Shown: positions 9,024 through 48,945, counted from the first letter of the stretch. The stretch: DNA of 64,000 nt from an uncultured virus (IMG/VR IMGVR_UViG_3300027985_001690) (IMGVR_UViG_3300027985_001690), one strand, 5' to 3'. Numbers and translations are program-made. The notes: a model not told the origin generated them from the sequence alone.

Positions 9024-9453
9024 TGGGCCGGGGAGGCTGTTCGTTGGAGGAGCTCCCCAACCGAAGGACCGAATGCAGAACTGGGCGGACGCCCTCGTGC
9101 TGTGCGCGGCGGAGTACCAGCCGGGGGAGGAGGATCTCGAATTCGACGACGTCGAGATCCTTCGCGTGAACCTCGGCGACGTAAACGCGCCGATGACGCC
9201 CGAGAACATGGCCAAGATCTTCTCGGTGTCGCAGAAAGTCGCGAGGCGTCTGAACGACGGCGGACGCGTAGTCGTCACCTGCTTTTCCGGCCTCAACCGG
9301 TCGTGCCTCATCGCCGGCATGGCCATGAGGATGATCGGGATGTCCGCGGACGACACGGTCAACAATCTTCGCGCAGCTCGTGGGGAGAACGGGCTGTGCA
9401 ACGAGACCTTCGAGCGCATCGTTCGAAACACGATGCCCCTCGTTGGGAGATGA
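8998..9453 (+). CDS. dual-specificity/tyrosine protein phosphatase
   Basis: CX5R P-loop VVVTCFSGLNRSC, followed by LRAARG..LCN..F. Confidence 0.85.
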   Translation: MSYDRINIDGPGRLFVGGAPQPKDRMQNWADALVLCAAEYQPGEEDLEFDDVEILRVNLGDVNAPMTPENMAKIFSVSQKVARRLNDGGRVVVTCFSGLNRSCLIAGMAMRMIGMSADDTVNNLRAARGENGLCNETFERIVRNTMPLVGR

Positions 9454-9479
9454 GTGTGGATTGGCTAGTCGCGTACTAG

Positions 9480-10215
9480 GACGCGCAAGGGCTGGCTGGG
9501 AAGGCACGGCAAGGCAGTCATGGCATCGCTGGTAGACGCGATACGAGGACTGACGAGGCACGGCAGTCGTGGAACGGCAACGCGTCGCGCGGACGGGCAT
9601 CGATCTGTGGGCACGGAAACGCAAGGCAGTCGTGGAATGGCCTCGTGCGAAGGGAAGGTCTGGCAAGGCAGTCGTGGCGGCGAACGGACTGGCCTATGGG
9701 ATGGGCGAGTCGAGGCAAGGAAAGGCAGTCATGGCGTGGCTAGGCCCAACCGAGCGTGGCAGGGCAGTCATGGCGCGCGGGGATCGGTCAGGCATGGATT
9801 TGCAAGGCAGTAGTGGCTTGGAATGTGTGGAACGTCCACGTACGGAGCGGCAGTCCTGGAATGGCAACGCATGGTTAGTACCGGTATGGAGAGGCAGTCG
9901 TGGCAAGGTATCCAGCGGACAGGTGATGCCTGGCGCGGCAGTCGTGGATAGGCAAGGCATCGAGAGGACGGGCATCGATCAGCCGATATAGGCAACGCAA
10001 GGCAGGTAGGCAGGGATCGGACGGCGCAATCCGCAACGCATGGCAGTCGTGGATAGGCAACGCATCAATCGGATTGGCACGGCAGTCGTGGCAAGGCATC
10101 GGGCGGCGGGACGAGGCGCGGCAGGACGGCAGGGCGGAGCGACTTTTGCGAAGGCCCGGCAAGGCAGTCGAGGCAAGGCACGAGGCGGATAGGTAGACCT
10201 CGGCATGGCAGGCAA
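9480..10215 (+). repeat. non-coding array of ~16 units: GGCAGTCRT anchor plus 6-11 GGN-NN-type pentamers; candidate guide-RNA array
   Basis: Anchors at about 9513, 9562, 9625, 9667, 9724, 9763, 9806, 9849, 9893, 9937, 10001, 10042, 10081, 10120, 10163 and 10207. Many spacings are 39/44/49/64 nt (9+5n). Example unit: GGCAG TCGT GGCAA GGTAT CCAGC GGACA GGTGA TGCCT GGCGC. Confidence 0.85.
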
Positions 10216-10236
10216 GAAACAACGGAGGAAGAACTG

Positions 10237-10971
10237 ATGAAAGCAAAACGATCGGGACAAGGTGAGACGGATTCGAAGAAGAAGCAGTACTCAAAGCCAG
10301 AGATCAAGGTCAAGCCCACGCCCGGCGGGGTCACCACGAAGGTGGTGGCGCAGAAGGCTCCCAAGGGAAAGGAGAAGAAGGACGAGCAGATCACCCTGCT
10401 CGCGATGGACATTCGGCGCGTCGTCATTCCGATCGTCGGAATCTCGCAGCTGATCGTCAATAACTGGTCGCAGAAGTCCCTGCAGATGATTCGGGACACG
10501 CAGCAGAAGAAGGCCAAGACCGCGCGCGAGGCCAAGAACCCCGAGGCAGACTTCGAGGCAGCGAAGTACAAGAACGAGAACGGGGAGGACTGCGTGCCCG
10601 CCGGGGCCTTCAAGAATGCGATCGTCGCCGCAGCTCGGTACAACGACGCGAAGATGACGGTGCTCCGGGGAGCGCTGTTCGTGGTGGGCGACCTCATTCC
10701 CATCGAGTTCGAGACGTGCACGATGCGCGAGGACCCCGTCCGCGTGGGCATGGGCAAGACCGACCTTCGATACCGCCCCGGGTACTCGGGCTGGAGCGTG
10801 GACCTGACGATCGAATACAACGCGAACGTCATCTCGATCGAGCAGCTGATCAACCTGGTGAAGCTCGCCGGGTTCTCGGTCGGAATCTGCGAGTGGCGCC
10901 CGGAAAAGAACGGCCAGTTCGGTCGATTCGAGATCGCCACCGAGAACCTCACCGAAACGTCGAGGTCATGA
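10237..10971 (+). CDS. RAMP/Cas7-like RNA-binding protein (stand-alone phage RAMP; Vipr-like)
   Basis: RRM/RAMP hallmarks: VIPIVGISQLIVN strand, VPAGAFKNAIVAAA helix, DLRYRP..WSVDLTIEY, and a C-terminal Gly-rich loop AGFSVGICEWRPEKNGQFGRF; RBS GGAGG. Confidence 0.75.
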   Translation: MKAKRSGQGETDSKKKQYSKPEIKVKPTPGGVTTKVVAQKAPKGKEKKDEQITLLAMDIRRVVIPIVGISQLIVNNWSQKSLQMIRDTQQKKAKTAREAKNPEADFEAAKYKNENGEDCVPAGAFKNAIVAAARYNDAKMTVLRGALFVVGDLIPIEFETCTMREDPVRVGMGKTDLRYRPGYSGWSVDLTIEYNANVISIEQLINLVKLAGFSVGICEWRPEKNGQFGRFEIATENLTETSRS

Positions 10972-11846: not shown

Positions 11847-12617
11847 ATGTGGGTACCAGTCCTTCTCGCCGGCGCTGCCATCGCCGGAATCCTGATCGCC
11901 AAGAAGATGTCCGAGGGTGGCAGCGTCCAGCTGCAGGACGCTCCGCCCCCGGGAACACCGGACGTGCCGAGGCCTCCGCCAGGCGTGATCAACATCTCCG
12001 CCTCGCAACCCGAGACGTTCATGGCCGCGGGCGCGGACGTGCCGGCGGAACTCGTTTGGGTTCGGTTCGTCGCCATGAGCCTCGCCCACCCGGACAGAAC
12101 CTATGTCGGTCTGAAGTCGTTCCCCTCGCTCGAGCTCGCGACCAAGTACTACGAAGCCATGGGCATGTTTTTCGAGCAGTACCACAGTTGGTGGACGTGC
12201 CCGGGTGGAACCGTCGAGATTGACCTTTGGGGCTTCGGAAATGGGGACACCATTCCCAGGTCATTCGACCGACACACCTTTTCCTGCGCCGACCTCGAGG
12301 TTGCACAGGGAGCATCGGTCGAACAGCGCCCACCGGACCCGCCGACAGCCGTCGGTTTGGCCCCGACGATCCCCCTGTACATCGTGATGATGACTATCTC
12401 TGGCTCGGTCAACACGGGTGAGCAGTTCACATTCCGCTCGGACGCCGAGGCAGAGACCTACTATCGTCTCCTCAAAGCGTTCTTCGACCAGAGCGTCATC
12501 CGCCAGGCCTACACCTTCCCAGTCGGCTCGATCGTCTTGCTCAAGTACGGGACGAAGCCGTCCGTCAGCCGCGCCGCGGTGTACTCCGAGGGAGGCCTCA
12601 TCGGGGAAGAGCCGTGA
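11847..12617 (+). CDS. membrane-anchored hypothetical protein
   Basis: ATG at 11847 after AGGAG; N-terminal TM segment MWVPVLLAGAAIAGILIAKK. Confidence 0.6.
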   Translation: MWVPVLLAGAAIAGILIAKKMSEGGSVQLQDAPPPGTPDVPRPPPGVINISASQPETFMAAGADVPAELVWVRFVAMSLAHPDRTYVGLKSFPSLELATKYYEAMGMFFEQYHSWWTCPGGTVEIDLWGFGNGDTIPRSFDRHTFSCADLEVAQGASVEQRPPDPPTAVGLAPTIPLYIVMMTISGSVNTGEQFTFRSDAEAETYYRLLKAFFDQSVIRQAYTFPVGSIVLLKYGTKPSVSRAAVYSEGGLIGEEP

Positions 12618-13195
12618 TGTGGCCCGTCGTCGCCGGAGGACTCCTCGGAGGCCTTCTCGTGGCGCTGTGGCCCCGTTCGTCCAGGGCCGGCGCTCTGCCG
12701 TCCACCACCGGGCCCAGGACCTGGCGGGACGACATGATGGATTGCGTCCGCGCCCATGCCGCCGCGGGGACCCTCTACCAATGGGGCGGGGGTCACGGGT
12801 GGCAGGACCCGGAGTACGGGGTCGACTGCTCAGGGCTGGTCTGCCAGTGCGCGCGACGCGCCGGCATCGACCTGTGGATGACCGCCGACATGATGTACAA
12901 GGAGCTCCCAGAGGTGCTGGAGCCCCAGCCCGGGGACGTCGCCCTCTACGGGAGTCCGTCACGAGCCATTCACGTACGTGTCGTGGATGAATGGTTCCCC
13001 GCGGAGGGGCGGGCGGCTACCATCGGCGCCGAGGGCGGCGGAAGCAAGGTGAACGATCCGGAGGAGGCCAAGCGCATCGACGCGAGGGTCAAAAGGTTCA
13101 GCGATCATCGGTTCGCGAACTTCCTCGGCTTCAGAACCCTCGAGGGATACGAGCGCGCCGCTGTCCAATCCAGGATGTGGCACGGAGCCGGTTGA
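12614..13195 (+). CDS. NlpC/P60 family cell-wall peptidase with N-terminal membrane anchor
   Basis: YQWGG...GVDCSGLV (catalytic Cys), PQPGDVALYG, AIHV (His). Confidence 0.85.
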   Translation: MMWPVVAGGLLGGLLVALWPRSSRAGALPSTTGPRTWRDDMMDCVRAHAAAGTLYQWGGGHGWQDPEYGVDCSGLVCQCARRAGIDLWMTADMMYKELPEVLEPQPGDVALYGSPSRAIHVRVVDEWFPAEGRAATIGAEGGGSKVNDPEEAKRIDARVKRFSDHRFANFLGFRTLEGYERAAVQSRMWHGAG

Positions 13196-13220
13196 CATCG
13201 CCGCCGGCGTCTGTCACCAT
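13192..13220 (+). promoter_or_regulatory. sigma70-like promoter candidate
   Basis: TTGACA (13192-13197), a 17-nt spacer, then CACCAT. Confidence 0.4.
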
Positions 13221-13253
13221 CCTCGAGTCATAGGCATCAGGCTTCCTCTGTTC

Positions 13254-13293
13254 GGACCGCAGGAATTGACCTCTCCTGCGGTCCTCCTCTTTT
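13254..13293 (+). terminator. intrinsic terminator-like hairpin
   Basis: Perfect 11-bp stem GGACCGCAGGA / TCCTGCGGTCC with a 9-nt loop, followed by TCCTCTTTT. Confidence 0.55.
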
Positions 13294-13580
13294 GTGGTTT
13301 CGATCTCGACGTTCGGCCTTCTTCGCATTGCGGTTCATACGGCGCGCGGCGAGGTGCTTCTTGACGACGGAGTCCTCTTTGACGCGCTTTGGCTCCGACC
13401 GGACGAAAGACGGCCACGGGTGAACCTCGGGCTCCCGCGGTCTCTCGATCGTTGCCGATGGGCCGTTGTACCCGATTGACGCGAGCGCGCACGCTGTTGC
13501 AGCTAGGATCCGACTCCGGTTGTTCATCCATTCACCATAGCACGCTTGCCGCGGGCCGGGTTCTGCGGGAAGATCTGTGG

Positions 13581-14084
13581 ATGCCGATCTTCGACCCATC
13601 CAAGACCAACAAGCACTACGTCGACACCGGGGCCTTCAAGTCCAAGTCCGGGTTTGGTTCCGGGTCTGGGTCGGCATACGGAGTTGTGCCTCTGGCGCCG
13701 TTCCCAACGTACCCACAGGCATCGCCGTCGTCCTCGGCTCAGCCGGTAAGCCCCTCGAGCCCACCAGCGCAGCCAGCGCAGCCTCTGGCACCGGCGATGC
13801 CCAAGTCGCCGACGTCTCCGCCAGCGTACGTAGCGTCTCCAGGGGCGTCATCTACACCCGTCCAGGCCCAGCCTTCCGCGTCCGCGTCCGGGTCCGAGTC
13901 GCCAGCGCCCATACCGTACCAGCCGACGAGGCCTCCGGCTCCTGACCAGTCGTTTCCTCCATCTGCCTACCCGCCCGCGGCCACCGAGTCGACCTCGAGC
14001 TCGAGCTCCGGATTGCTCGTTCTGGGGGCCGTCCTTCTTCTCGGAATCGGAGTTGTCATCGTTGGATCTTCGTCGGACGCTTGA
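13581..14084 (+). CDS. Pro/Ser-rich protein with C-terminal transmembrane anchor
   Basis: MPIFDPSK..., low-complexity P/S/A body, GLLVLGAVLLLGIGVVIVG. Confidence 0.6.
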   Translation: MPIFDPSKTNKHYVDTGAFKSKSGFGSGSGSAYGVVPLAPFPTYPQASPSSSAQPVSPSSPPAQPAQPLAPAMPKSPTSPPAYVASPGASSTPVQAQPSASASGSESPAPIPYQPTRPPAPDQSFPPSAYPPAATESTSSSSSGLLVLGAVLLLGIGVVIVGSSSDA

Positions 14085-14102: not shown

Positions 14103-15536
14103 GCCTCGAACTCGACGGCGTCGAGATGCCGTTGACAACAGCGTGCACGAAGCATCCGTCTCGAACCGAAAGGCGTCGAGATGCCTTTGGACCACGGTGC
14201 CGTTGGAGGCCAGTCGGATAGCCGTCAGCTAACATGGGGATCTGCTCGTCTCGAGCTCGAAGGCGTCGAGATGCCGTTGGGACTCCACCTTGTTTTCCCT
14301 GCGTCTGAGGGTGCGTCCGGTCTCGAACTCGAAGGCGTCGAGATGCCGTTGTAACACGCGCAGCCGTTGGGGGCCGACGGAAAGACCCTGCCGTCTCGAA
14401 CTGGAAGGCGTCGAGATGCCGTTGAAACACATCGAACTGTCTCGAACTGGAAGGCGTCGAGATGCCGTTGGGAACATCGTCAGATCGGCGGCAGGACTCG
14501 GAGCATTGCTCGTCTCGAACTCGAAGGCGTCGAGATGCCGTTGGGACCCAGACGTCCGAATCGGTGGAACGCCTCAACGCGATGGGTCTCGAACCGAAAG
14601 GCGTCGAGATGCCGTTGTGACTGGCCGCGCGGCGCTTCGATCGCCGGAAGGTTGGCCGTCTCGAACTGGAAGGCGTCGAGATGCCGTTGTTGACGCGCAA
14701 TCGACGACAAGAGCGGTCTCGAACTGGAAGGCGTCGAGATGCCGTTGAAACACATCGAACTGTCTCGAACTGGGAAGGCCTCCTCGTCTCGAACTGGAAG
14801 GCGTCGAGATGCCGTTGGGACATGCTTGGCAGTGGCTATGATGAGAGTCTGCACTGCAGTCTCGAGCTGAAGGCGTCGAGATGCCGTTGGACCACGGTAC
14901 GGCGACCATGAACTGTCTCGAACTAGAAGGCGTCGAGATGCCGTTGTGACGATGACTTGGGGCGCCGCGATGTCGACGACGTCTACAGTCTCGAACTGGA
15001 AGGCGTCGAGATGCCGTTGTGACTGCCTCCTTGTCGGCTGGTCCAAACACTGGGGGCGGGTGTCTCGAACTCGAAGGCGTCATATGCCGTTGTGACACGG
15101 GACGAGAAATCGGCGGGCGAGGAACCAAAGCAGGTCTCGAACTGGAAGGCGTCGAGATGCCGTTGGGACCCAGACGTCCTGACGATGAAGGGGCGCCTCG
15201 ATGACGTCTCGAACTGGAAGGCGTCGAGATGCCGTTGGGACGCGCTGCATAGGCGAGTGCTGCACGGGTGAGATGTGTGGTCTCGAACTGGAAGGCGTCG
15301 AGATGCCGTTGGGACTTAATCATGCCGGTCATGTGGGGCGTCTTTTTGAGGGGTCTCGAACTGGAAGGCGTCGAGATGCCGTTGGGACTGGCCCGAGCCA
15401 GGGGTTGGACGTGGCCACGGGCAGCCAGTCTCGAACTGGAAGGCGTCGAGATGCCGTTGGGACGAGGCGGAGGCTGGGTGAGCAGAGTGTCCGAGTCCCA
15501 GTCTCGAACTGGAAGGCGTCGAGATGCCGTTGGGAC
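14103..15536 (-). CRISPR. CRISPR array, ~22 repeats (one truncated), 36-bp repeat GTCCCAACGGCATCTCGACGCCTTCCAGTTCGAGAC on the minus strand
   Basis: Plus-strand repeat GTCTCGAACTGGAAGGCGTCGAGATGCCGTTG(G/T)GAC starts at 14103, 14158, 14248, 14320, 14393, 14439, 14512, 14586, 14658, 14716, 14762 (partial), 14786, 14859, 14915, 14988, 15062, 15134, 15206, 15280, 15353, 15428 and 15501. Most spacers are 36-39 nt. Repeats are identical at the right end and degenerate at the left, from which the orientation is inferred. Confidence 0.97.
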
Positions 15537-15543
15537 GGATGGG

Positions 15544-16002
15544 TCACGTTGCCAATGATTCCGTGTGGTTGGGGACCGAATTGCGAGCGGTGTCCATGCG
15601 CGCCAGTTTCTCTGCTCTCTTCCTCGCCACACGATCGTACCTGGACTCCTTGGGTTGGCCGTTTTCGTCGAGTTTGTCGACGTTTCGAGCGCTCCCCACG
15701 ATCTTCGAATGACCTGGGCTCTCGCAGTGGATCTTGAGCATGTTCTTGGCTGCGTTCTCGTCCTGGTCCCACCTGGCGCCGCACTGAGAGCACGTGTGAT
15801 AGATGGATGCCTCCGCGTCGAAATCCTCCAAGCTACCGCAAGCGTGACATGTCTTTGTCACGGGAGACCTGTTTGCCACGCTGTATATGAGCTCGTTGAG
15901 CGCGGACTTGCTTGCCATCACCAGGAACAGCAGAACCAGCAGGCACGGTCCGCCCACCATGATCGCTGCGATCTTCACGCACGCTTCAGGCCACATCATC
16001 AC
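15544..16002 (-). pseudogene. truncated TnpB/Cas12 (type V-U/V-M-like) C-terminal fragment fused to a hydrophobic N-terminus
   Basis: TKTCHACG...HTCSQCGARWDQDENAAKNML is a zinc ribbon plus RuvC-III motif (DxDxNAAxN). RuvC-I/II and REC regions are absent. The stop codon is 7 nt from the first CRISPR repeat. Confidence 0.75.
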
Positions 16003-16760
16003 TTCACCAAGTCCAGTTGGTTGTTTGATTTCTTACGAGCAGATTTACGACGAGCTATGTCCCGATCAAGGGACGCAACCATGCGCGAAGCCGCAGCGAA
16101 AGCTGCAGTTCCTTGCGCTCGGGTCGCGCTCTCCCATGCAGCTCCCTTCTCGTTCCGGTATCCGACCTCCTTTCGGACGGCGTCGTCGACTCGACGGTAG
16201 ATCGTAAGCTTCGTTCCGTCGGCGCCGAGTTGAATGTGCTTGTCTCGGATCGCGATGAACATTCCACGAAGCGCCTTCGCGTCTCGCTTCCCAAGCAAAC
16301 CATAGGGGTGTTCGCGTTCTCGTTCCGTTCTCCATTCGGTGAGTGCCTGTACCTGGGAGGCAAGCGCTCCGATCGTCTTCCCCTGTGCCTCCAGCATGCC
16401 GAGCAAGCGGATCGTGAACGCCTCTTCATGTCCCGGTGCTACGTAGCCGCCGGTCTTGCGTATCGACGGAAGCACCTCGTGGTTGACCCAACGGCGGAAT
16501 CGCTTGGCGGATGGCTTGCGACTCCGACCGATGAGAGCGTAGAGACCAGCCTCGGTCACGGTCGCCATTTCCTGCGGACCGCCATGGGTGTCAACAATCC
16601 TTACCCCCTTCTCATCGTCATCCAGAGCCCCCAGTGCCATACGGCTGTTGGTCAACTCCAGAACCTCGCACACGTCCTTCGCGACCCATTCGGTTCCGAC
16701 CTCCGTCTCGATCTGGCGAACGGCGTGGCCTTCGAAGTCCAGCTTGATGATGTTCGACAT
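15999..16760 (-). CDS. BRO-N domain phage antirepressor
   Basis: FEGHAVR...WVAKDVCEVLELTNSR...LDDDEKG...GGPQEMATVTEAGLYALIGRSRKPSAKRFRRWVNHEVLPSIRKTGGY. Confidence 0.92.
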   Translation of the reverse strand: MSNIIKLDFEGHAVRQIETEVGTEWVAKDVCEVLELTNSRMALGALDDDEKGVRIVDTHGGPQEMATVTEAGLYALIGRSRKPSAKRFRRWVNHEVLPSIRKTGGYVAPGHEEAFTIRLLGMLEAQGKTIGALASQVQALTEWRTEREREHPYGLLGKRDAKALRGMFIAIRDKHIQLGADGTKLTIYRRVDDAVRKEVGYRNEKGAAWESATRAQGTAAFAAASRMVASLDRDIARRKSARKKSNNQLDLVK

Positions 16761-16781
16761 CCACAGACCTCCTCGTGCAAC

Positions 16782-17813
16782 CTATTTCCGATCCTTGTAC
16801 GGAACCTTCAGCATTTCCGCGGCGCGCTTTCGAGTCTTCTCGCCTCTCCGATCGTACCTGGCTGTGGTGTTCGGGGAGGAATGGCCCACGAGCTTCTGCA
16901 CCGTCGCGATGTCCACCCCGTTTTCGAGCATGTCGCCGATGTACGTCCGTCGGAAATCGTGGGGCGTCATGTGCTTCACCCCGGTGGCGAGCTCGATCCT
17001 GGCGATGCACTTTCGGATCGCGTCGTCGGAGATGCCCTTCGAACCTCTCTTGGTCAACACGCCGTGCTTGCTGATTCCGACGAACAGTGGACCCGGCGCG
17101 TCCCCTCGGACCTCGAGCCACCTGGCGATCGCCTTCGCCGCTCCCGGGGGCAGGTAGGTGATTCTCTCCTTGTTGCCCTTGCCGATGAGCCGGACCGACG
17201 GGGCTTCGATATCCAACTCGTGGAGCTGCACGGAGGCGACCTCCGACCTACGGAGTCCACACCCGTACAGAAGCGACAGGATGGCGGCGTCCCGGACCCC
17301 CGACAGGCTGTCCCCGCAGACGTCGAAGAGCTTCTGCACCTCGTCGAACCGGATGTGCCTCCCGGCCTGAACGCGGCTCCCCTTCACCCCTTTGACGCTC
17401 CTGGCGCGCTGGTAGTTGTCGGTGGAGATCTTGCGCTGCTTCCATGCGACCTCGAGGACCCCGCGCACCGCCGACAGGGTGTGGTTGGCCGTGTTGGGCG
17501 AGCAGCTGGACGACAGCCTGGCACGAATCACCTGCATGTGGCGGTACCGAATCTTCTCCCATGGGAAGTCCTCGACCCGGACGAGCTCATTCTCGATGCG
17601 GAACCCCAACACACGCACGACCCGCTTCAGAGCACCGTAGATCGACGCCCGGCTCTTCTCTGACCCCAACGACGCCATGTACACGGCCACGCAGGACCCG
17701 CCCTCCTCCTCGGAGGTTTTCCGCCTGGTGATCTCGGGCGCCGGCGGGCGAACGGCGAGGGCGCTTCCTGGGCGCTTGGTCGACCGCCTGGTTCGGGTCC
17801 GCTTCTTCATCAT
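16782..17813 (-). CDS. tyrosine recombinase/integrase (XerC/D-like)
   Basis: RDAAILSLLYGCGLRRSE (R), GKGNKER (K), TPHDFRRT (HxxR), LVGHS..TTARY (H, Y). Confidence 0.93.
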   Translation of the reverse strand: MMKKRTRTRRSTKRPGSALAVRPPAPEITRRKTSEEEGGSCVAVYMASLGSEKSRASIYGALKRVVRVLGFRIENELVRVEDFPWEKIRYRHMQVIRARLSSSCSPNTANHTLSAVRGVLEVAWKQRKISTDNYQRARSVKGVKGSRVQAGRHIRFDEVQKLFDVCGDSLSGVRDAAILSLLYGCGLRRSEVASVQLHELDIEAPSVRLIGKGNKERITYLPPGAAKAIARWLEVRGDAPGPLFVGISKHGVLTKRGSKGISDDAIRKCIARIELATGVKHMTPHDFRRTYIGDMLENGVDIATVQKLVGHSSPNTTARYDRRGEKTRKRAAEMLKVPYKDRK

Positions 17814-18283
17814 CGCTTCGCGTCGGCTCGCTTCCATAGCTTGAGCATTTCCCGCCGATCCTTTCGAGTCAACCGGACCCGCTTGTCGACGACGCTGACG
17901 ACCGTGGCCGAGGCGCACGTCCAGGATGGGAACGGATCCTCGTCCGATCTCTCGATGATGCCGATGGGCTCCACGACGTACAGACTGCCGTGGCTCCGGG
18001 CGGCGTACCACCTCGCGTACTTCATGTGGTTGGTGATGTAGACGGCCTGGCGGGCGGACGGGGGATCGATCGCTTCCGACGCGTCCACCCCCTCCAGCCC
18101 CTCAAGGATGGGTCGAGCCTTCGGTCCCATACGGGAGAGCCATAGACGGTACTCGCCGACCGTGCACACCCGGCCAGCCGCCCGAGCGACGCAGATCGGA
18201 CAACCATCGTGAACGTGCGGTGGCGCCGGGACCAGGATATCACCCGGCGCCTTTCCCGCGATGCCTCCGTGGAAGTAGCTCAC
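17810..18283 (-). CDS. Arr-like ADP-ribosyltransferase with Cys insertion
   Basis: YFHGG...PGDILVP...VYITN...ARWYA...GSLYVVEPIG matches the H-Y-type ART core of the Arr family; contains a CPIC insert. Confidence 0.65.
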   Translation of the reverse strand: MSYFHGGIAGKAPGDILVPAPPHVHDGCPICVARAAGRVCTVGEYRLWLSRMGPKARPILEGLEGVDASEAIDPPSARQAVYITNHMKYARWYAARSHGSLYVVEPIGIIERSDEDPFPSWTCASATVVSVVDKRVRLTRKDRREMLKLWKRADAKR

Positions 18284-18826
18284 TTTCCCTTGTCCTCTTT
18301 CGCCTTAGCGCTCACGTCGTAGACCATCGATGCCCACGTAAAGGCCTCGTCCCACACGTCGGCGCGGACTCGCGCCTCCGCCGCGGCGTTCCTTGCCTTG
18401 TCCCTTTCGTACCGAAACATGTCGACCAGATCCTTTGGTGTTTTCGGAGCTGACATCTTTCCTCGTCAAGAACATGGGTTGGTGTCGTAGCCGGGTGGCT
18501 TCCATCCGCAAACACGGTGGGAGTCCCACTCGTCGTCGAACAGGTGACCTGCTGGATCAGACCGCAGTGGCTTCCCAATGCACCACGGTGGCGATGACAG
18601 TAAGTACGAGAAAGCCAGCGCACACGTGAGAATCCACGCATCCAGAAACGTCATATGGAGTGCAGCAGTCGGAAGTAGATCTCCGACGTACACGAGCGAG
18701 CACCGTTTCCAGCTGCTCGGCTTCGCCCATGGCTTCTCGCACCACGGACACGCGGAGTCCCCGGGGAGCCTCGGGCTCTCGCAATCCGAGCAGTACTCCA
18801 TCTCGCCGCATGCGTGTCGACATCCG

Positions 18827-19183
18827 CTATCCATCGCCGAGGACCCCGAGCTTCTTGGCGATGTCGACCTGCTCGTCAGCGGCGTACCCGATCCAATTCC
18901 TGAAGTCGCAAGCGTCGCCTTTCCCACACCCGCAGTGGTCGATCAACTCACACAGAGGACACCCTGGTATCGTCGATATCTCAATCCCACCGGCTTCGAC
19001 GCAGTTGTTCAACAGCGCGATGTACGACGAGGCGAGGGGATCGAACCCCGACCTTGTGTCCATCCTACCCGACGAACACTTCGCTTTCCGATCAAATTCC
19101 TCAGCGCTCTTTGAAACGAACGAGGACAGCCCTCGGTCGTCGATGGCATTTCGCAACTCCTTCCAGTGAGATTTGCACATCTG
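18827..19183 (-). CDS. Cys-rich hypothetical protein
   Basis: MQMCKSHWKELRNAIDDRGL...CPLC; part of a co-oriented minus-strand block. Confidence 0.5.
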   Translation of the reverse strand, partial: QMCKSHWKELRNAIDDRGLSSFVSKSAEEFDRKAKCSSGRMDTRSGFDPLASSYIALLNNCVEAGGIEISTIPGCPLCELIDHCGCGKGDACDFRNWIGYAADEQVDIAKKLGVLGDG

Positions 19184-19185
19184 CA

Positions 19186-19452
19186 TCACAGTCCTCCACG
19201 TTTTCTGTATCCGTGCCCCCGACCCCCGGCGCACTCGGTGCAATGCATCCTGGTGGGAGGCGTCTCGCCCACGATGGGACCAACGACGTGCCCGCACTCC
19301 AGCTGGAGCATCCACACGAACGACTCAGCTGCTCGGTCCTGCGCCCACTGTGGAGCGCCATGCTCCAGGTCGAACAGGTGATGCTTTCGCACCTCGCGGT
19401 GGTACTTCGTCTCGAACGTGAGTACCTTGGCTCCCTGGGGCGACGGTTTCAT
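19186..19452 (-). CDS. small zinc-ribbon hypothetical protein
   Basis: LECGH...HCTEC; ATGA overlap with the upstream gene. Confidence 0.45.
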   Translation of the reverse strand: MKPSPQGAKVLTFETKYHREVRKHHLFDLEHGAPQWAQDRAAESFVWMLQLECGHVVGPIVGETPPTRMHCTECAGGRGHGYRKRGGL

Positions 19453-20202
19453 TCCACGTCCTTCAGCGCCGCATCAATTCGACGGAGCAACCCAGGTCTG
19501 GTCTCGTTCTGCCACTCCACCTCCTGGTCGTGCTCCACGGAGCAGTCGGTGCAGTGGGGAGGCTTATCGGAGTCGAGGTCGACGACGCCCGTGAGCATGC
19601 ATCCGCAGTCACAGCAGATGGGCCGCGTGACGTCGCGGAGCAACTCCAGGGCGTCATCCCGCTGGTCGTTTGCATCCGGGACCTCGACGAGTTGCGCGTG
19701 GTCCCGCTCTCTCGTAACCACTCGCAGGAAATCCCTCGTCGCGTCGAGTTCGATGAGCATCGCCCTAGCCAGCTTGTCGGTCTGGGCAAAGTCGCACTCG
19801 TCCAACTCCCGTCTCACCCGTTTCAAGTCGAGCTCGCTCACCGTCGCCTCCTCGCCTCTGCCTCTGTCCGCTTGCTGTACGCGTCTCGGTTCTGACATCC
19901 GTAGCAATCGCAGTCCTCTGGAGGCTCTATGCGCTCACACGCGCAATCGGCCAGCTCCAGCAATTCGTTGTATCTACGGTTTCCGGCCAGGACGTCCAGA
20001 AGCCTATCTATGACGTCTTGCGCCCCGTCCCCGAGGGTGTACTCGGCGTCCCGGTTGTTCTTGATCCCGTGGTCATTGCGGGAGAGAAGACCCCGGCGCC
20101 ACAACCGTACTGCTGCTGTCCGCTCGCCCGGGAACGCGATGCACGGACTCTTGGAGTTCGCGACTCGAGACAGCAGCGCCAACTCTACCAGGTGCTTCTT
20201 CA

Positions 20203-20760
20203 TCAATCGGCCTTGTCCTGGATGCTCTGGAGGGCCCTGACGTACCAGACGTTGTTGATGTCCGCGTCGGTGATTTCCTTGAGTTGATCCTCCGACTCGA
20301 TGACGCCCCACCAAGACTCGCACCCGAGCACGACTCGTTTGAGGTCGAACACCCAGATCGCCGGGTTGTGAAAGCCGAAATCGACCTGTATCGCCTCGAT
20401 CTCGCGACTGTACTTGACGGAGACCCCGAGCGCCAACTCGCCGAGCAGCATTCCCAGGTAGGTCTTGTCGTCCGAACAACACCTGACCTTGACGAAGCAC
20501 CCGCTGGCGTTCTTCACCGAGGCGCCGACCAGCGCGGACCCCCTCCCTTGGACAATCCTTCGAACGGGCCTGGCCTCGGGAGAGTTGGAGACGGGAAGAT
20601 CCGTCATCATCTCTGCCATCCAGTCCTCGCAGACCTTCTCGGACTCCGGTCCGTGGAAGCTCCGATCGAAGATGTTGACCCGCTCCTCCTCGAGGGCTTT
20701 GATCTGTTTTTCGATCTGTTCCAGACGCTCGCTCTGCTCTTCTTTCACGTTACGCATCAT
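20203..20760 (-). CDS. conserved hypothetical phage protein
   Basis: KTYLGMLLGEL...NPAIWVFDLKRVVLGCESWWGVIESEDQLKEITDADINNVWYV, recalled as a recurrent phage protein family. Confidence 0.6.
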   Translation of the reverse strand: MMRNVKEEQSERLEQIEKQIKALEEERVNIFDRSFHGPESEKVCEDWMAEMMTDLPVSNSPEARPVRRIVQGRGSALVGASVKNASGCFVKVRCCSDDKTYLGMLLGELALGVSVKYSREIEAIQVDFGFHNPAIWVFDLKRVVLGCESWWGVIESEDQLKEITDADINNVWYVRALQSIQDKAD

Positions 20761-21710
20761 GTTGCCTCCGGGTATTGCCTGACACGCAGGCTGTTCGGCC
20801 ACTCGTCCATGTTCCTCCCCGCGACGTCCTTCAAACGACGCACGGTGCGACCGTATTCCTTGGGGACCTTGGCGAAACGCCCGGCCACCCAATTCTTCTC
20901 GTCGATGTACGCGGACCCCATCTGCTTCATGTAGACGGCGATCCCGTCGTCCTCGCCCTGACGCGCGATGCTCTCCAACCACTCCCGCCGGCACTCCCTC
21001 GCCCGCGGCCCGGACTCCCCTCCCGGGATGAGCCAGTCGACCCACCTGTCCTGAACCCATCCCTGCGGTCCCCCCGTCTCGTGGCCGTATTCGTCCCTCT
21101 TCAGCTCGATCGGACCCAGCAGCGGCTCGAGGGATAGGAACCTGACCGCCGCGGGGACCTGGACCAGGTCCGGTATGCGCTTGTCGGCCCGATCCTGGTC
21201 CTCGCAGGTGGTGCCCACCCAGACGTTCCGGAGGGGCCATACGTCGGGCAGGCCCATCGCGTCGACGTCGACGCCGTGGTTCTGGGCGTTGACCCCGCAT
21301 AGCAAGGGTATCGGACACTGGGCCATCCGCGACTCATCCACCAGCCACTCGTAGAACTTGAGCATCCTGTCGGGGCGCTTCGTCAGCAGGATGAAGACGT
21401 GCTGCGGGCACGCGGCCATGACCCCGTACATCGCCGCGATGTACTCGAAGGGAACGTGCGGGTGGAAGGTGTCGCCCATGTCGTTGACAAAGATGCGCCG
21501 GGGCTTTCGCCAGTGCGTTGGGTCCCCCAGCTTGTTGTCCTGCTGGACGATGTTCCCGTTCCACTTTCCGTTGGTTGTCGCCATCCGGTACGGCGGGAGG
21601 TGACGAAGCCGGGTGCCTGCGAGCTTCTCGGCGTAGCAGTTGGCGCAGCCGGGAGAGGCGTGTGAGCACCCGATGAGAGGATTCCAACTCTGGTCCCACC
21701 ACTTGCTCAT
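20757..21710 (-). CDS. phage Gp37/Gp68 (DUF5131) family protein
   Basis: SWNPLIGCSHASPGCANCYAE, WRKPRRIFVNDMGDTFH, LLTKRP, RFLSLEPLLG, WLIPGGESG. Confidence 0.9.
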   Translation of the reverse strand: MSKWWDQSWNPLIGCSHASPGCANCYAEKLAGTRLRHLPPYRMATTNGKWNGNIVQQDNKLGDPTHWRKPRRIFVNDMGDTFHPHVPFEYIAAMYGVMAACPQHVFILLTKRPDRMLKFYEWLVDESRMAQCPIPLLCGVNAQNHGVDVDAMGLPDVWPLRNVWVGTTCEDQDRADKRIPDLVQVPAAVRFLSLEPLLGPIELKRDEYGHETGGPQGWVQDRWVDWLIPGGESGPRARECRREWLESIARQGEDDGIAVYMKQMGSAYIDEKNWVAGRFAKVPKEYGRTVRRLKDVAGRNMDEWPNSLRVRQYPEAT

Positions 21711-26152: not shown

Positions 26153-26496
26153 ACGGACCTACCTCTCAGCCATTCTCCGAATGTCTCGTTCGAATCAGCT
26201 CGAAGGAACTCGCGATACCGGGCCTGGGACCGGGTGAGCTTGGGGGCCTTCGGGCTGTGCTCGTCCACGTACGCCCGACCGTCGTCCGTGACCACGAAGA
26301 TGGGATCGCCCCCACTGATGGCGCGCCCGGCGTGCTCCGTCATGAGACCCTTCTCCGCGGCGTCTCTGCAGACGTCGTAGGACTCGCTTCCTTCCCCGGT
26401 GACGTAGTGGTTGCGGTAGTCGCGGTCGAGCCCTTCCTTGCGCCTTCCGTAGGCGTCCCGGCCCAGGGCGTGTTGGAGTACCTCCAGCGTCGTCAT
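26149..26496 (-). CDS. conserved hypothetical phage protein
   Basis: LQHALG..YRNHYVT...FVVTDDGR...KLTRSQARYREFL. Confidence 0.6.
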   Translation of the reverse strand: MTTLEVLQHALGRDAYGRRKEGLDRDYRNHYVTGEGSESYDVCRDAAEKGLMTEHAGRAISGGDPIFVVTDDGRAYVDEHSPKAPKLTRSQARYREFLRADSNETFGEWLRGRSV

Positions 26497-27941
26497 TCGA
26501 TTCCGAGCTCCTTCGCGCGGTCCAGGAACGCGTGCTCCGCGGCGGTTGCATTCCAAGGAACGATCTCGTCGGCCATGGGCTCCCCGACCCACTGCCACGC
26601 CCGAGGGGGGTCGCACATCAGGTCGCGGCGCTCGGTACCGAGCATGATCAGGTCGGCCTCGGTGACGGACTTGGGCTGCTGGTACGGCAGCCCGAACCGG
26701 TCGCACACGCACCGCATGATTCCGGCCTCCATGCGTCGGAACCACTCGCCACCCGGGGAGTGCTTGATGGGCCTCACCAGGTCGGAGACGTAGGCCTCCG
26801 CCGCGTCGTGCAGCAGTGCCCACTTGGCGTCCTGCTCGGGCACCAGCATGCTGGCCAGCACGCTGTGCTGAGCGACAGAGTAGAACACCCGGGTGTGCCC
26901 CGAGAAACGGCAGGTCAGCGATAGGGCGTGGGCGACGTCCTCGAGGACGATGTCCTCGGGCTTCGGCTCAAGAGGCCAGAAGACGCCACCGCTGCAGGTT
27001 TGCATCCAGTCGCCGCGAATCTCCACGTTCCGGTCGACAGGTACGATGTCGGTGTCCAGCTCGTCGCGGATCTGCTTTGCCAACGTCTTCATGGCCATCA
27101 GGTATCCCTCGACACCATCCGCATGGTCGATGACCTTCAGCGCTTCCGCGGACAGCTTGCCGGGATTCAGCTGCAGGAAGTCGTCCACCTGGGAAAGCAG
27201 GGCGCGAACCCTTCCCAGCTTCTCCTCCGCGGCGTTCGCGCGGGCGGCGTTGTGGTTGGAGGTCTCGATCCACCAATCGAGCTTGTTCGCTGTTTCCTCC
27301 GACTTGCGCTCCAATTCAGCGTTCTGATCTCGAAGCCGGCGGGCGGGAGCGAGCTCGAGGCTCCACTGCTTGTGCGTTCGGTCTTTGGGGTCGACCGTCG
27401 GGTGCCCGTCGAGCTCGAATCCGATGGCGTCGAGCTTCCCGCAGAGTTCGTGGACTCGATCCCGACTGAACCGGAGTTCCGACTGGGAGGTCTCCAGGGA
27501 CTTTTCCGCGTCCACGCGTAACTCGTGCGGGGTCTTCCCGTTCGGTCGATGAACGGTCGTGACGACGGTCCCGTGCTCTGGATGTATGAACCGGAACTCG
27601 ATGTAGTTTTCGACGTCCCTCGCGGTCAGCGTGTCGATAAAGTGCGACGCAATCATCTGCGCGCACTCGTGCGAGCTGGTGAATTGGACCTGGTGCCCGA
27701 AGATGAAGGTGTCCAACTGCGGCGACTTGCCAAGCATCGACTGGATGACGTCGGCCATCACCTCCGGAACCACGAGACGTATTCCGGCGTTCGTGGAGTC
27801 CCACCCGTCGGCGTCGTTGCCGAAAATCTTCGGATCGGGAGGGAACGACACAATCTCCCTGCCCTCTTCGTCGACGGCGAGGCTTCCCGGAGCCTCGAAA
27901 ACTACGTCGTCCCCCTCTCGGTAGATCTTGAGATCAGCCAT
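26493..27941 (-). CDS. fusion protein: Ead/Ea22-like coiled region plus C-terminal HD-domain (YfdR/YfbR-like) deoxynucleotidase
   Basis: C-terminus WMQTCSG..FWPLEP...DVAHALSLTCRFSGH...YSVAQHS...ALLHDAAEAY.SD...PIK...ADLIMLGTERRDL. Confidence 0.8.
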   Translation of the reverse strand: MADLKIYREGDDVVFEAPGSLAVDEEGREIVSFPPDPKIFGNDADGWDSTNAGIRLVVPEVMADVIQSMLGKSPQLDTFIFGHQVQFTSSHECAQMIASHFIDTLTARDVENYIEFRFIHPEHGTVVTTVHRPNGKTPHELRVDAEKSLETSQSELRFSRDRVHELCGKLDAIGFELDGHPTVDPKDRTHKQWSLELAPARRLRDQNAELERKSEETANKLDWWIETSNHNAARANAAEEKLGRVRALLSQVDDFLQLNPGKLSAEALKVIDHADGVEGYLMAMKTLAKQIRDELDTDIVPVDRNVEIRGDWMQTCSGGVFWPLEPKPEDIVLEDVAHALSLTCRFSGHTRVFYSVAQHSVLASMLVPEQDAKWALLHDAAEAYVSDLVRPIKHSPGGEWFRRMEAGIMRCVCDRFGLPYQQPKSVTEADLIMLGTERRDLMCDPPRAWQWVGEPMADEIVPWNATAAEHAFLDRAKELGIE

Positions 27942-29891: not shown

Positions 29892-30602
29892 ATGCCTGAC
29901 TCACTCGGGGATCGGATGAAGCGCTACGAGTTGGCGCTTCGGCACTCTGTGACGCCACGTTCTCCCATCATCATCAGGGTGGACGGCAAGGCCTTCCACA
30001 CGTACACCAGGCCGCTCAAGAACCCGTTCGACAAGAACCTGAGCATGGCGATGGTCGCCGTTGCCAAGGCCTTGTGCAGCGGCATCCAGGGCGCGCAGCT
30101 GGCCTACACCCAGAGCGACGAGGTGAGTGTGCTCGTGCACGCCTACAAGCGCTTCGACAGCTCGTGCTGGTTCGATGGGCAGGTGCAGAAGATGGCCTCG
30201 GTCTCCGCCGCCATCGCCGCGGGCGTGATGACCGCGAATTCGGACGTCATCTTTGGTCGTACGCGCATCGCGGCGTTCGACTCCCGCGTCATCGTGATTC
30301 CCGAGAACGACGTCTGCAACTACTTCGTATGGCGCCAGCAGGACTGCATCCGCAACAGCGTCCAGGGACACGCACGGACCATGTTCAGCCACCGCGAGTG
30401 CCACAAAAAGGACCAGGAGGCCCTCAAGACGATGTGCAGGGCGTCGATGCAGCCGTGGGAGGACCTCGACCCGATGTGGAGATACGGCATCGTGGTCGAG
30501 AAGAGGGACGGCGATAGAGCGTGGCAACAGTTCGACGCCTACCCGCCCTTCCAGGACGACAGGCTACAGATCGAGAGACATCTGGACCCCGAGGAGATGT
30601 GA
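29892..30602 (+). CDS. tRNA(His) guanylyltransferase Thg1-like (3'-5' polymerase)
   Basis: IIIRVDGKAFHTYT, AYTQSDEVS, WFDGQVQKMAS, FDSRV, NYFVWRQQDCIRNS. Confidence 0.93.
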   Translation: MPDSLGDRMKRYELALRHSVTPRSPIIIRVDGKAFHTYTRPLKNPFDKNLSMAMVAVAKALCSGIQGAQLAYTQSDEVSVLVHAYKRFDSSCWFDGQVQKMASVSAAIAAGVMTANSDVIFGRTRIAAFDSRVIVIPENDVCNYFVWRQQDCIRNSVQGHARTMFSHRECHKKDQEALKTMCRASMQPWEDLDPMWRYGIVVEKRDGDRAWQQFDAYPPFQDDRLQIERHLDPEEM

Positions 30603-47604: not shown

Positions 47605-48945
47605 TCAACGTCCCAGCGAAGCCTGAAAGTCCTCCCAGTCGGACTCAAGTCCAAGGATTCGTACCAGGTGACGCGGTACCATCTGCTTCGCGTGCTCCTG
47701 CAGAGTCTTCGCTGTGCCGCGGCGCACAGCAAACAGGGCGCTCGGCCAACGGTGTCGCTTCGCCAGACTGGCGAACTCCTTATCGTCGTCGACAGCAATG
47801 ATGACCCGATAGACGGCACGTGTCTCCGAGATCAAAGCCTCGTACCTGGTGGAGACAAACAGGAGTTGGTCTCGGACGAGTGGGCTGCAGACGTCGGTCA
47901 TCTTCGCCATCTCCTCCTTGTCGTCCTGGACGACCATCTGCACCAGGCTGGTCCACGGAGCCTTCAATCTCCATTGCCACGCGTACTGCTTGTGCACGGT
48001 GTCGAGCTCGTGGCTCTTCTGCCTGTACGCGTCGGACGTGATCTTCACGCGCTTGACGCCGTCGAAGATCGACGAGTAGTCCGCGACGACGTAGCCCTCG
48101 TGGTCGTCGGCATCCCTTGAGTTGGCTTCGGTCGTCAAGGACTCGCAAAGGTTCCTGTCGCAGGAGGCGTTCATGTGATCGATCGGCGTGTATTCGTTGG
48201 ATACCCGAACCTCGCAGAAGTCCTTGCCCGACCTTGCACCGAGCAGCCACAAGCGTCGCTGCTTGTACCTGCATACGACGTGGTTCTCGGGGCCCGTCAG
48301 CTCCAGCATGAACGTCATGTGCTTGTCGGACGGATCGATAGGGGCCAACACCTGCTCTGCGAAATCGGTCAGCGACCCGAACCCCATGCTCTGCGCGGTG
48401 AGCTCCGACAACTCCCTGTACGTCAGACCGCACTGAGAGACCGTGGCAGCCTCCGGATCCTTTCGGGTACCGACGTGCCATTTGCCTCGGTCTCGGTATA
48501 TGATCAGCAGGGTGCCGTCCATCTTCTCCTGAACCGAGACGCAGTTCCAGTCGACTACCGCGGCGCACTCCTCCTCGGCGCCAAAGAATCGATCGAACGG
48601 GTACGCGATGACGTCCCAAGTTCCCTCTCGAAGGATCAGGCCCCTGCACTGGCAGGCCAGAGGGTCGTCGCGGCGCGCATCGAGTTGGTGGTAGGAGAGG
48701 GAAACCTTCCCGTTCCGTGTCCGGGACACCACGCCGTGATCACGGAGCAGACGTTCGAGCGTTCCGCCCTCCCGCAGATACCGAACGACGAGCGGAAGCT
48801 TGGGCCTTTCGTCCACCGGAATCACGACGGGTACCCCATCCTCGTAGACCACGCAGTCGCGACCGCAGTGCGCGCAGCATCCGTCCTCATCCGCCTTGAC
48901 GACTCCGCAGTCGGCACATTCGAATCGGTTCGGATCCATCGTCAT
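47605..48945 (-). CDS. T4 Rnl1-like RNA ligase
   Basis: CRGLIL...AYPFDRFF, motif I EKMDGT, TFMLEL..PENHVV, EGYVV, RVKI. Confidence 0.88.
   Translation of the reverse strand: MTMDPNRFECADCGVVKADEDGCCAHCGRDCVVYEDGVPVVIPVDERPKLPLVVRYLREGGTLERLLRDHGVVSRTRNGKVSLSYHQLDARRDDPLACQCRGLILREGTWDVIAYPFDRFFGAEEECAAVVDWNCVSVQEKMDGTLLIIYRDRGKWHVGTRKDPEAATVSQCGLTYRELSELTAQSMGFGSLTDFAEQVLAPIDPSDKHMTFMLELTGPENHVVCRYKQRRLWLLGARSGKDFCEVRVSNEYTPIDHMNASCDRNLCESLTTEANSRDADDHEGYVVADYSSIFDGVKRVKITSDAYRQKSHELDTVHKQYAWQWRLKAPWTSLVQMVVQDDKEEMAKMTDVCSPLVRDQLLFVSTRYEALISETRAVYRVIIAVDDDKEFASLAKRHRWPSALFAVRRGTAKTLQEHAKQMVPRHLVRILGLESDWEDFQASLGR

Follow-up and report, generated by a model that had tools for sequence, protein, structure and literature searches.

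The window analysed here, a stretch of 64,000 nucleotides, makes up 52% of a 122-kb (122,384-nt) contig of an uncultured virus (IMGVR_UViG_3300027985_001690). The sequence is present in two runs, labelled hydrothermal vent metagenome and metagenome. The gene content is that of a temperate phage and includes an integrase, a Bro-N antirepressor, a DnaC-like loader, a helicase, methyltransferases and an NlpC/P60 protein. A CRISPR array lies next to an ORF of 152 aa, which in turn is preceded by the antirepressor and integrase genes (Table 1). Rfam and tRNA searches of the window gave no matches. Adaptation genes were looked for with HMMs built from 22 Cas1 and 21 Cas2 sequences in the six frames of the window and, as stated in a preliminary description of the locus, neither cas1 nor cas2 was detected. 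The window shares this lack of adjacent adaptation genes with subtype V-M; five of five viral records likewise contained none, nor did any of the 70 proteins encoded around 13 related loci belong to them.

Table 1. Features of the CRISPR locus and its surroundings (positions in the window)
Feature	Position	Strand	Remarks
Type V-M CRISPR array	14103-15536	minus	20 intervals between 21 full repeats of 34-37 nt; leader end 15536
Six identical leader-proximal repeats, 36-39 nt spacers	15134-15536	minus	newest part of array
17-nt half repeat inside interval S11	14762-14778	minus	internal duplication/deletion scar
Further repeat remnants	14198-14210 and 14363-14372	minus	internal duplication/deletion scars
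Proximal leader motif ACCGCTCGCAATTC, type I-G form	15578-15591	minus	core ~52 nt before repeat 1, inside coding sequence
Distal leader motif AGCGCTCGAAACGT	15680-15693	minus	102 nt upstream of proximal motif, as in host I-G leaders
Chimeric 152-aa ORF (hydrophobic peptide + Cas12m C-terminus)	15544-16002	minus	start overlaps upstream stop (TGATG)
cas12m remnant: zinc ribbon, RuvC-III (WDQDENAA), basic tail	15544-15873	minus	HMM positions 524-630/631
Unrelated N-terminal peptide	15874-16002	minus	one predicted membrane helix; coding-like GC3 0.80
Bro-N antirepressor gene	15999-16760	minus	directly upstream of chimeric ORF
Tyrosine integrase gene	16782-17813	minus	upstream of antirepressor, same strand

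The 152-aa ORF matched Pfam Cas12f1-like_TNB with 35.5 bits, and its residues from about 43 to 149 correspond to the C-terminal sixth of a type V-M Cas12m. Against a family HMM of 104 full-length relatives, this part aligned to positions 524-630 of 631 (135.8 bits). A six-frame HMM search of the window revealed no other cas12m piece better than E 0.4, and displacement of the rest of the gene by the integrase and antirepressor genes was rejected, the six frames being empty. About 83% of cas12m is gone, including WED, REC, RuvC-I and RuvC-II; the full effector of a V-M locus, about 600 aa with WED, REC1/REC2 and a complete RuvC, is not encoded within the window. The C-terminal ~100 residues had been described as zinc ribbon plus RuvC-III. 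Both are present, although limited to residues ~47-90, and residues ~91-149 form a basic tail common to this Cas12m clade. No decay was seen, the remnant having retained WDQD and each of the four zinc cysteines. The tail of the remnant scored above 47 of 51 and 49 of 50 held-out intact tails, a set that was picked by similarity to the remnant and is biased upward.

The N-terminus proved to be unrelated and hydrophobic, as first noted, with a best 19-residue mean hydropathy of 2.68 and no homologue. These ~43 residues probably derive from the start of a different small gene of the phage, for which no candidate parent was found among short proteins, related loci or the window. A search of 1.84 billion protein representatives listed 150 matches, from which the query and P0002 (5412 aa, spurious and repetitive) were removed. 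Among the best 148 matches listed, 109 are at least 530 aa long and none aligns to query residues 1-24. This search supersedes a weak word search for longer homologues, in which none scored. Upstream of 95 related loci, at least 430 open codons were found in 71, the contig end cut the frame in 20 and four were short. Truncation is therefore not the norm in the family. The fusion protein is a singleton. A single-sequence structure model, with a pLDDT of 57 and a pTM of 0.25, was uninformative. Two other incomplete relatives were encountered. P0117 (311 aa) has an in-frame internal deletion that joins HMM position 293 to 535 and retains the same C-terminal module. A C-terminal-only Cas12m-like remnant lies in a metal-efflux region of a deltaproteobacterial genome (L016, 4794-5150), where no array was found.

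Among solved structures, the fragment was best matched by Cas12m 23VW (E 2e-13), with TnpB-type chains at 2e-7 to 5e-3. PADLOC scored the fragment as Cas12u1 with 41 bits, tied with a similar-length model labelled Cas12f, and scored the nearest full-length relatives as Cas12u1 with 244-354 bits. P0005, from these nearest full-length relatives, matched 23VW with E 3e-73 and Cas12m2 with E 2e-36. The effector is thus of the Cas12m/V-U1 kind rather than TnpB or Cas12f, and the original view, a locus of the Cas12m (V-U1/V-M) kind in which the greater part of the effector has disappeared, was borne out. The nearest intact relatives are mostly D-E-D (71 of 104) and not H-D-D, so that DNA cleavage by this lineage is conceivable. 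The locus is a broken member of the known subtype V-M; because the effector is incomplete, it is V-M by descent and not a working member.

The array was delimited by a repeat scan and alignment. The minus-strand repeat consensus is GTCCCAACGGCATCTCGACGCCTTCCAGTTCGAGAC, found exactly in seven of the 21 copies, six of which are consecutive and gene-proximal. The number of repeats agrees with the ~22 given before when the 17-nt half repeat is counted, and the array begins, also as reported, 7 nt past the ORF (stop codon 15544-15546, first repeat from 15536). In related loci with intact genes, the array often lies 2-30 nt behind the stop. The leader was assigned to the gene end because the six copies nearest to the gene are identical and the variants gather toward 14103. 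Intervals of 36-39 nt make up 14 of the 20, and the six odd ones measure 10, 18, 21, 22, 34 and 55 nt. Several distal intervals have common ends or repeat remnants (S5/S14, S9/S19, S11/S16 and S17), the marks of internal duplication and deletion. Decay after loss of the effector was rejected as the cause of this raggedness because related arrays are ragged too: across 40 of them, 49% of the 330 repeat copies deviate and 20% of the spacers are odd-sized.

The hairpin described for the minus-strand repeat (TCTCGA-11nt-TCGAGA) is present, but by itself its folding does not exceed that of shuffled sequences (z -1.45); the hairpin forms one half of a pseudoknot. Two crossing helices covary across 31 repeats, with 90% of 341 cells paired compared to 64% after shuffling and 26-43% when slid, and with 87 double changes compared to 27. 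The crossing helices match the stem and pseudoknot of the Cas12m2 crRNA, and a stem plus pseudoknot with a disordered 5' end has been described for Cas12m repeats (PMC10442227). The repeat in the window has the 36-nt length, stem and pseudoknot that characterize subtype V-M. A two-helix descriptor was passed by 19 of the 21 window repeats, and three of the 18 distinct repeat changes fall on the 18 paired positions (p 0.004). Variation that preserves the structure is also seen beside intact genes and may therefore predate the loss of the effector. The two oldest repeats (14103-14139 and 14158-14192) carry the changes T23G; C8A, which lengthen the second helix, and pairing in the ancestral repeat may have been stronger than in the present consensus.

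Relatives with intact genes have repeats identical to that of the window at 27/36 (L049), 26/36 (L014) and 25/36 (L066) positions. The repeat belongs to a family that stands beside full-length Cas12m genes, a tie on which the earlier account depended. No other array with the window repeat was found in IMG/VR or among 401 genomes of one phylum. Solitary repeat folds in the window were not in excess (six matches, and 1-5 in shuffles), and the best match outside had E 0.25. A stem-only tandem pattern search gave 10 loci with one or two matches each, none of them coding for the fragment.

Alignment of the DNA upstream of first repeats revealed a leader motif. [CG]CTCG[AC] is located at -51 to -53 in 28 of 50 V-M leaders (49 relatives and the window), with a background of 3%. 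The cases are distributed over frame 0 (14), frame 1 (7), frame 2 (2) and non-coding DNA (5). Because it occurs in all three frames and in non-coding DNA, the motif is a DNA element, and a protein motif was rejected on the same grounds. An RNA pairing with the repeat was rejected by eye, the motif being fixed while the repeats vary. A sigma-70 scan did not reveal a promoter from which the array could be read, although the motif itself might conceivably act as one. Two motifs of the ACCGCTCG(C/A)AA type are retained in the remnant, about 52 and 154 nt before the first repeat.

Host leaders were taken from 40 of 107 Cas1 places in 251 genomes, all from the phylum to which a deltaproteobacterial genome with a related locus belongs. 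At nine places no array was found, and L143 was dropped as its first copy is not at the leader end, leaving 30 usable leaders. By repeat, 21 of these are of I-G type (18 confirmed by Cas4g/Cas1g over the cut-off), and nine belong to other Cas1 loci, including four I-C. A matrix with the consensus ACCGCTCGAAAACC was trained on the host I-G leaders alone, and the 99th percentile of the window was used as threshold. The matrix was passed by 18 of 21 host I-G leaders (leave-one-out), by none of the nine other Cas1 loci, a small control from one phylum, and by 29 of 49 V-M leaders, the other 20 failing. At six shifted offsets, 0-3 of the 49 V-M leaders passed.

The two window motifs scored 14.5 and 9.7 bits, and 1.2e-4 of the 5-position stretches in the window reach the proximal score. 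A site at ~52-53 nt with a second copy ~100-104 nt further upstream defines an I-G leader according to the 21 host leaders, the definition being ours and not taken from print, and the window has both copies, 102 nt apart. The second copy stands 100-104 nt upstream in 11 of the 13 host leaders with a distal site. Among the V-M leaders with both sites (n=14), the spacing is 101-102 nt in five and 78-88 nt in nine. In the last 60 nt of the window leader, 35 positions are identical to one I-G leader. Spacers of 35-39 nt account for 248 of 294 in V-M arrays and 449 of 489 in I-G arrays. The V-M and I-G repeats are unlike in sequence. A Cas4g/Cas1g-like Cas1 was found in one of five incomplete genomes with related V-M loci, and in none of a further five did one exceed the cut-off.

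Variants of the motif were noticed elsewhere. The Meiothermus Cas12m locus on plasmid pMESIL02 (L107, NC_014214, 4236-4390) has two GGTTCGCGCA copies before its array at similar distances, and a GGTTCGCGCA-like variant is visible by eye in three of the four I-C leaders (L135, L137 and L138). The GGTTCGCG variant, as in type I-C leaders, is present in other V-M loci, such as the Meiothermus plasmid locus. Four Cas12m-like loci with ~29-nt repeats or ~30-nt spacers (L071, L064, L097 and L092) are without the I-G motif and may use other adaptation donors.

The I-G Cas4/1 is known to pick TTN and 36-bp spacers and to have a 205-bp leader (PMC6547450), and Cas12m2 requires TTN (PMC10442227). In type I-F it is the leader that steers integration when the repeats are foreign (10.1101/2023.05.26.542337). 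Because leader motif, position, spacing, spacer sizes and the published TTN PAMs agree, V-M arrays of this kind, including the one in the window, were probably filled in trans by the I-G Cas4/1-Cas2 of the host. From the sequence comparison it also seems likely that the Cas12m systems of phages and prophages mimic the host I-G leader, often in the last cas12m codons, and so use the host Cas4/1-Cas2 to obtain TTN-compatible spacers. The window holds an intact leader of I-G form inside the cas12m remnant, which the preliminary description had overlooked; on this reading it is a cis element that has outlived its effector.

One spacer led to a possible target. S15 (14476-14511, minus strand) is matched by a separate 573-nt contig from run X1 (depth 4), which aligns to 14475-14511 with one mismatch. 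The match covers the exact span of the spacer and therefore suggests a real target in the same community, a probable protospacer in a co-occurring element. The 18 intervals of at least 20 nt had no match better than shuffles in the window (52% of the contig); a partial match of S13 (18/19), without TTN, was not above shuffles. Two weak records in INPHARED and one in PLSDB gave no usable target. Matches at E<=0.01 in 54 of the 401 genomes were single, short and partial and were judged to be chance. Five viral records gave no matches, and exact 21-22-mers of S15 and S1 were absent from IMG/VR. The match to S15 came without flanking sequence, the 294 spacers of relatives gave no usable target, and no PAM was derived. 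That spacers against the phage itself are lacking speaks against a spacer sink and is compatible with a recent loss as well as with continued interference; spacers free of window sequence are expected if few were acquired after interference was lost.

Cas12m processes its own pre-crRNA, requires no tracrRNA and, by binding DNA, silences transcription or mobile elements. We consider a recently deleted V-M locus, with an array that is most likely idle and a leader that is intact, to be the likely explanation of these findings. A temperate phage would have carried a full V-M module, consisting of cas12m, a leader in the last ~200 nt of cas12m, and the array. The host I-G Cas4/1-Cas2, to judge from the leaders, probably read the two motifs and inserted TTN-flanked spacers of 36-39 nt. 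By analogy with what is established for the subtype, Cas12m would have processed the pseudoknotted repeats and bound the DNA of competing elements. A recent deletion may then have removed the 5' ~83% of cas12m (WED, REC, RuvC-I and RuvC-II) and fused the remainder, with the reading frame kept, to the beginning of a gene for a small membrane peptide that follows the antirepressor. WED and RuvC anchor the crRNA (PMC11013384), and in Cas12m structures the parts missing here hold the crRNA, the PAM and the heteroduplex (PMC10442227, PMC11013384). Because these WED, REC and RuvC parts are lost, the remnant should be unable to hold crRNA or DNA and thus to guide, which would leave the array idle with its leader intact. 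We infer the deletion rather than see it, because a closely related phage in which the locus is intact did not turn up; searches with the integrase gave no loci, and those with the antirepressor two distant ones. Selection to retain the remnant would also be compatible with the in-frame fusion, the translational coupling and the lack of decay in the motifs.

The preliminary description had proposed that the array may be loaded by a Cas12 of the host or one encoded in trans. An array that still works could draw on an intact Cas12m, encoded either on the other 58 kb of the contig or by a second phage or a prophage in the same cell whose pseudoknot repeat is compatible. In favour of such use in trans are the 19 of 21 repeats that keep both helices, the few changes at paired positions (3/18, p 0.004), the intact leader, the lack of self-targeting spacers, the near-perfect match of S15 in the same run and the related repeats (25-27/36 identity) beside intact genes. 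However, the window contains neither an intact gene nor a second fragment, no other array has its repeat in IMG/VR or the 401 genomes, and solitary folds were not in excess (6 against 1-5 in shuffles; best outside E 0.25). The variation that preserves structure, occurring beside intact genes as well, may be older than the loss. Loading in trans was therefore left unsupported and is unlikely, though less so than the other alternatives.

The second proposal, a decoy, would have the remnant kept by selection, either because the leader soaks up Cas4/1-Cas2 integrations or because a host factor is tied up by the repeat RNAs or by the membrane-anchored zinc-ribbon fusion. In its favour, the breakpoint (~15870) leaves the leader complete, the fused gene keeps its reading frame and is coupled to the one before it, and deletions that retain the C-terminus are known from P0117 and L016. 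Against this, a random join would preserve the frame in one case out of three, the fusion protein has no second example, and no host array with the window repeat was found among the 401 genomes. A sink should moreover fill with the phage's own DNA, but the 18 intervals of at least 20 nt matched 52% of the genome no better than shuffles. With neither self-derived spacers nor dispersed repeats, the decoy found no support, and we regard it as improbable.

An assembly chimera of two phage genomes would also produce the truncation. No independent sample has the sequence, runs X1 and X2 are equal-sized and may be one data set, and the array interior (14690-15500) is uncovered among the contig pieces listed. 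Yet a 19,315-nt contig from another assembler spans 15501-21000 without a single difference and at even depth (16.8-17.5) in both runs, taking in the first repeat, the remnant, the junction and the antirepressor and integrase genes; no joint is listed, and of the loose ends listed (18 of 89) none lies at the junction. The same source reads were probably used, and the second assembly therefore excludes assembler error better than it provides independent support. As the junction is crossed unchanged, an artefact of this kind is very improbable.

A common TnpB of an insertion sequence, placed by chance next to an array with which it has nothing to do, is effectively refuted. In its favour, NCBIfam gave TnpB matches, none of them above cut-off (33 bits for a cut-off of 350), and the INPHARED matches were weak mycobacteriophage transposases. 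Against it, the IS200/IS605/IS607 TnpB models reached 18-33 bits for cut-offs of 100-425 that a fragment cannot reach, Cas12m was the best solved match by six orders of magnitude, the Cas12m-clade tail aligned through to its end, and repeat family, pseudoknot, stop-to-repeat distance and leader all agree with cas12m loci.

The locus can be compared with several known systems. With the V-M (V-U1) effectors MmCas12m2, GoCas12m, MsCas12m and PmCas12m (PDB 23VW, 8HHL/8HIO and 8PM4), it shares the gene-then-array layout without cas1/cas2, the 36-nt pseudoknot repeat with 6-7 variable nucleotides at the 5' end, and the zinc ribbon and RuvC-III; it differs in lacking WED, REC, RuvC-I and RuvC-II and in having the leader inside the coding sequence. 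V-M loci on plasmids and some prophages have been reviewed (PMC11656645). Phage-borne Cas12m is found in myxophage MV-1 (bioRxiv 10.64898/2026.09.14.751636) and in Virus Rctr197k (KX853510), likewise temperate or large phages with cas12m by an array, no adaptation genes and targets that are hard to find, but with intact effectors. In Rctr197k the gene is intact and encodes 622 aa, the array is 1.5 kb long, and motif-like sites stand, by eye, at matching distances. Its D-E-D Cas12m (L106, 2554-5970) is annotated merely as 'similar to transposase', and the record placed a phage-borne Cas12m in GenBank earlier than the 2026 'first report'.

After comparing its repeats with those of type I-E, the authors of the MV-1 study regarded acquisition through the host as unlikely; a leader comparison is not reported in the available part of that text (bioRxiv 10.64898/2026.09.14.751636). 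Type IV-A3 arrays have been shown by experiment to acquire spacers in trans from the host type I-E Cas1-Cas2 (bioRxiv 10.1101/2023.06.23.546257). IV-A3 is, like V-M here, a mobile system without adaptation genes in which the leader resembles that of a host subtype and the PAM is the host adaptation motif. In IV-A3 both repeat and leader resemble I-E, whereas here leader, repeat size, spacer size and PAM match and the I-G donor is deduced from sequence. The type I-G (I-U) Cas4/1-Cas2 module (PMC6547450, PMC10504553) is alike in motif, position, ~101-nt spacing (in the 21 host leaders used here), 36-nt repeat, 35-39 nt spacers and TTN, but the window repeat differs in sequence and no I-G cas gene is in the window. 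Viral mini-arrays and single-repeat RNA anti-CRISPRs (PMC11656645) are also phage-borne repeats without a working effector alongside. Mini-arrays have one or two spacers and repeats identical to those of the host, whereas the window has 21 repeats of V-M type and no matching host array was found in 401 genomes of one phylum; the array is accordingly not of this kind. In the accessible portions of the literature, including PMC10691335, PMC12669027, PMC13639370 and 10.64898/2026.03.26.714355, no statement linking V-M leaders to I-G was found; Wu et al. 2022 (Mol Cell) and Santiago-Frangos et al. 2021 may bear on it.

The broken gene itself is ordinary, since cas12m is familiar from mobile elements and is subject to deletion. 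What is new here is the leader: with I-G Cas4/1-Cas2 as donor, motifs at ~-52 and ~-154, a spacer size and a PAM, the growth of V-M arrays becomes testable. The embedded leader suggests how stripped-down phage systems acquire new spacers. If correct, this would be a counterpart, across CRISPR classes, of the IV-A3/I-E partnership; the conserved basic tail of these Cas12m would in part be leader DNA read through as protein, and the leader would offer a clue to the hosts of uncultured phages.

Some further features of the window were noted. About 800 nt of intergenic DNA without a confident ORF (9450-10240), in which overlapping spurious frames look repetitive, is possibly a multi-repeat non-coding region. 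A membrane-anchored run on the plus strand (11847-14084), encoding a 256-aa protein, the NlpC/P60 protein and a 168-aa Pro/Ser-rich protein with a C-terminal helix, converges on the array end. A 1662-aa protein (53461-58449, plus strand) has a short DUF5661 match alone and weak C-terminal matches in two Firmicutes phages. A Thg1-like tRNA-His guanylyltransferase (29892-30602), a T4-type RNA ligase (47605-48945) and an HD-type phosphohydrolase (26493-27941) are a possible tRNA repair or counter-defence set, in a window with no tRNA gene of its own.
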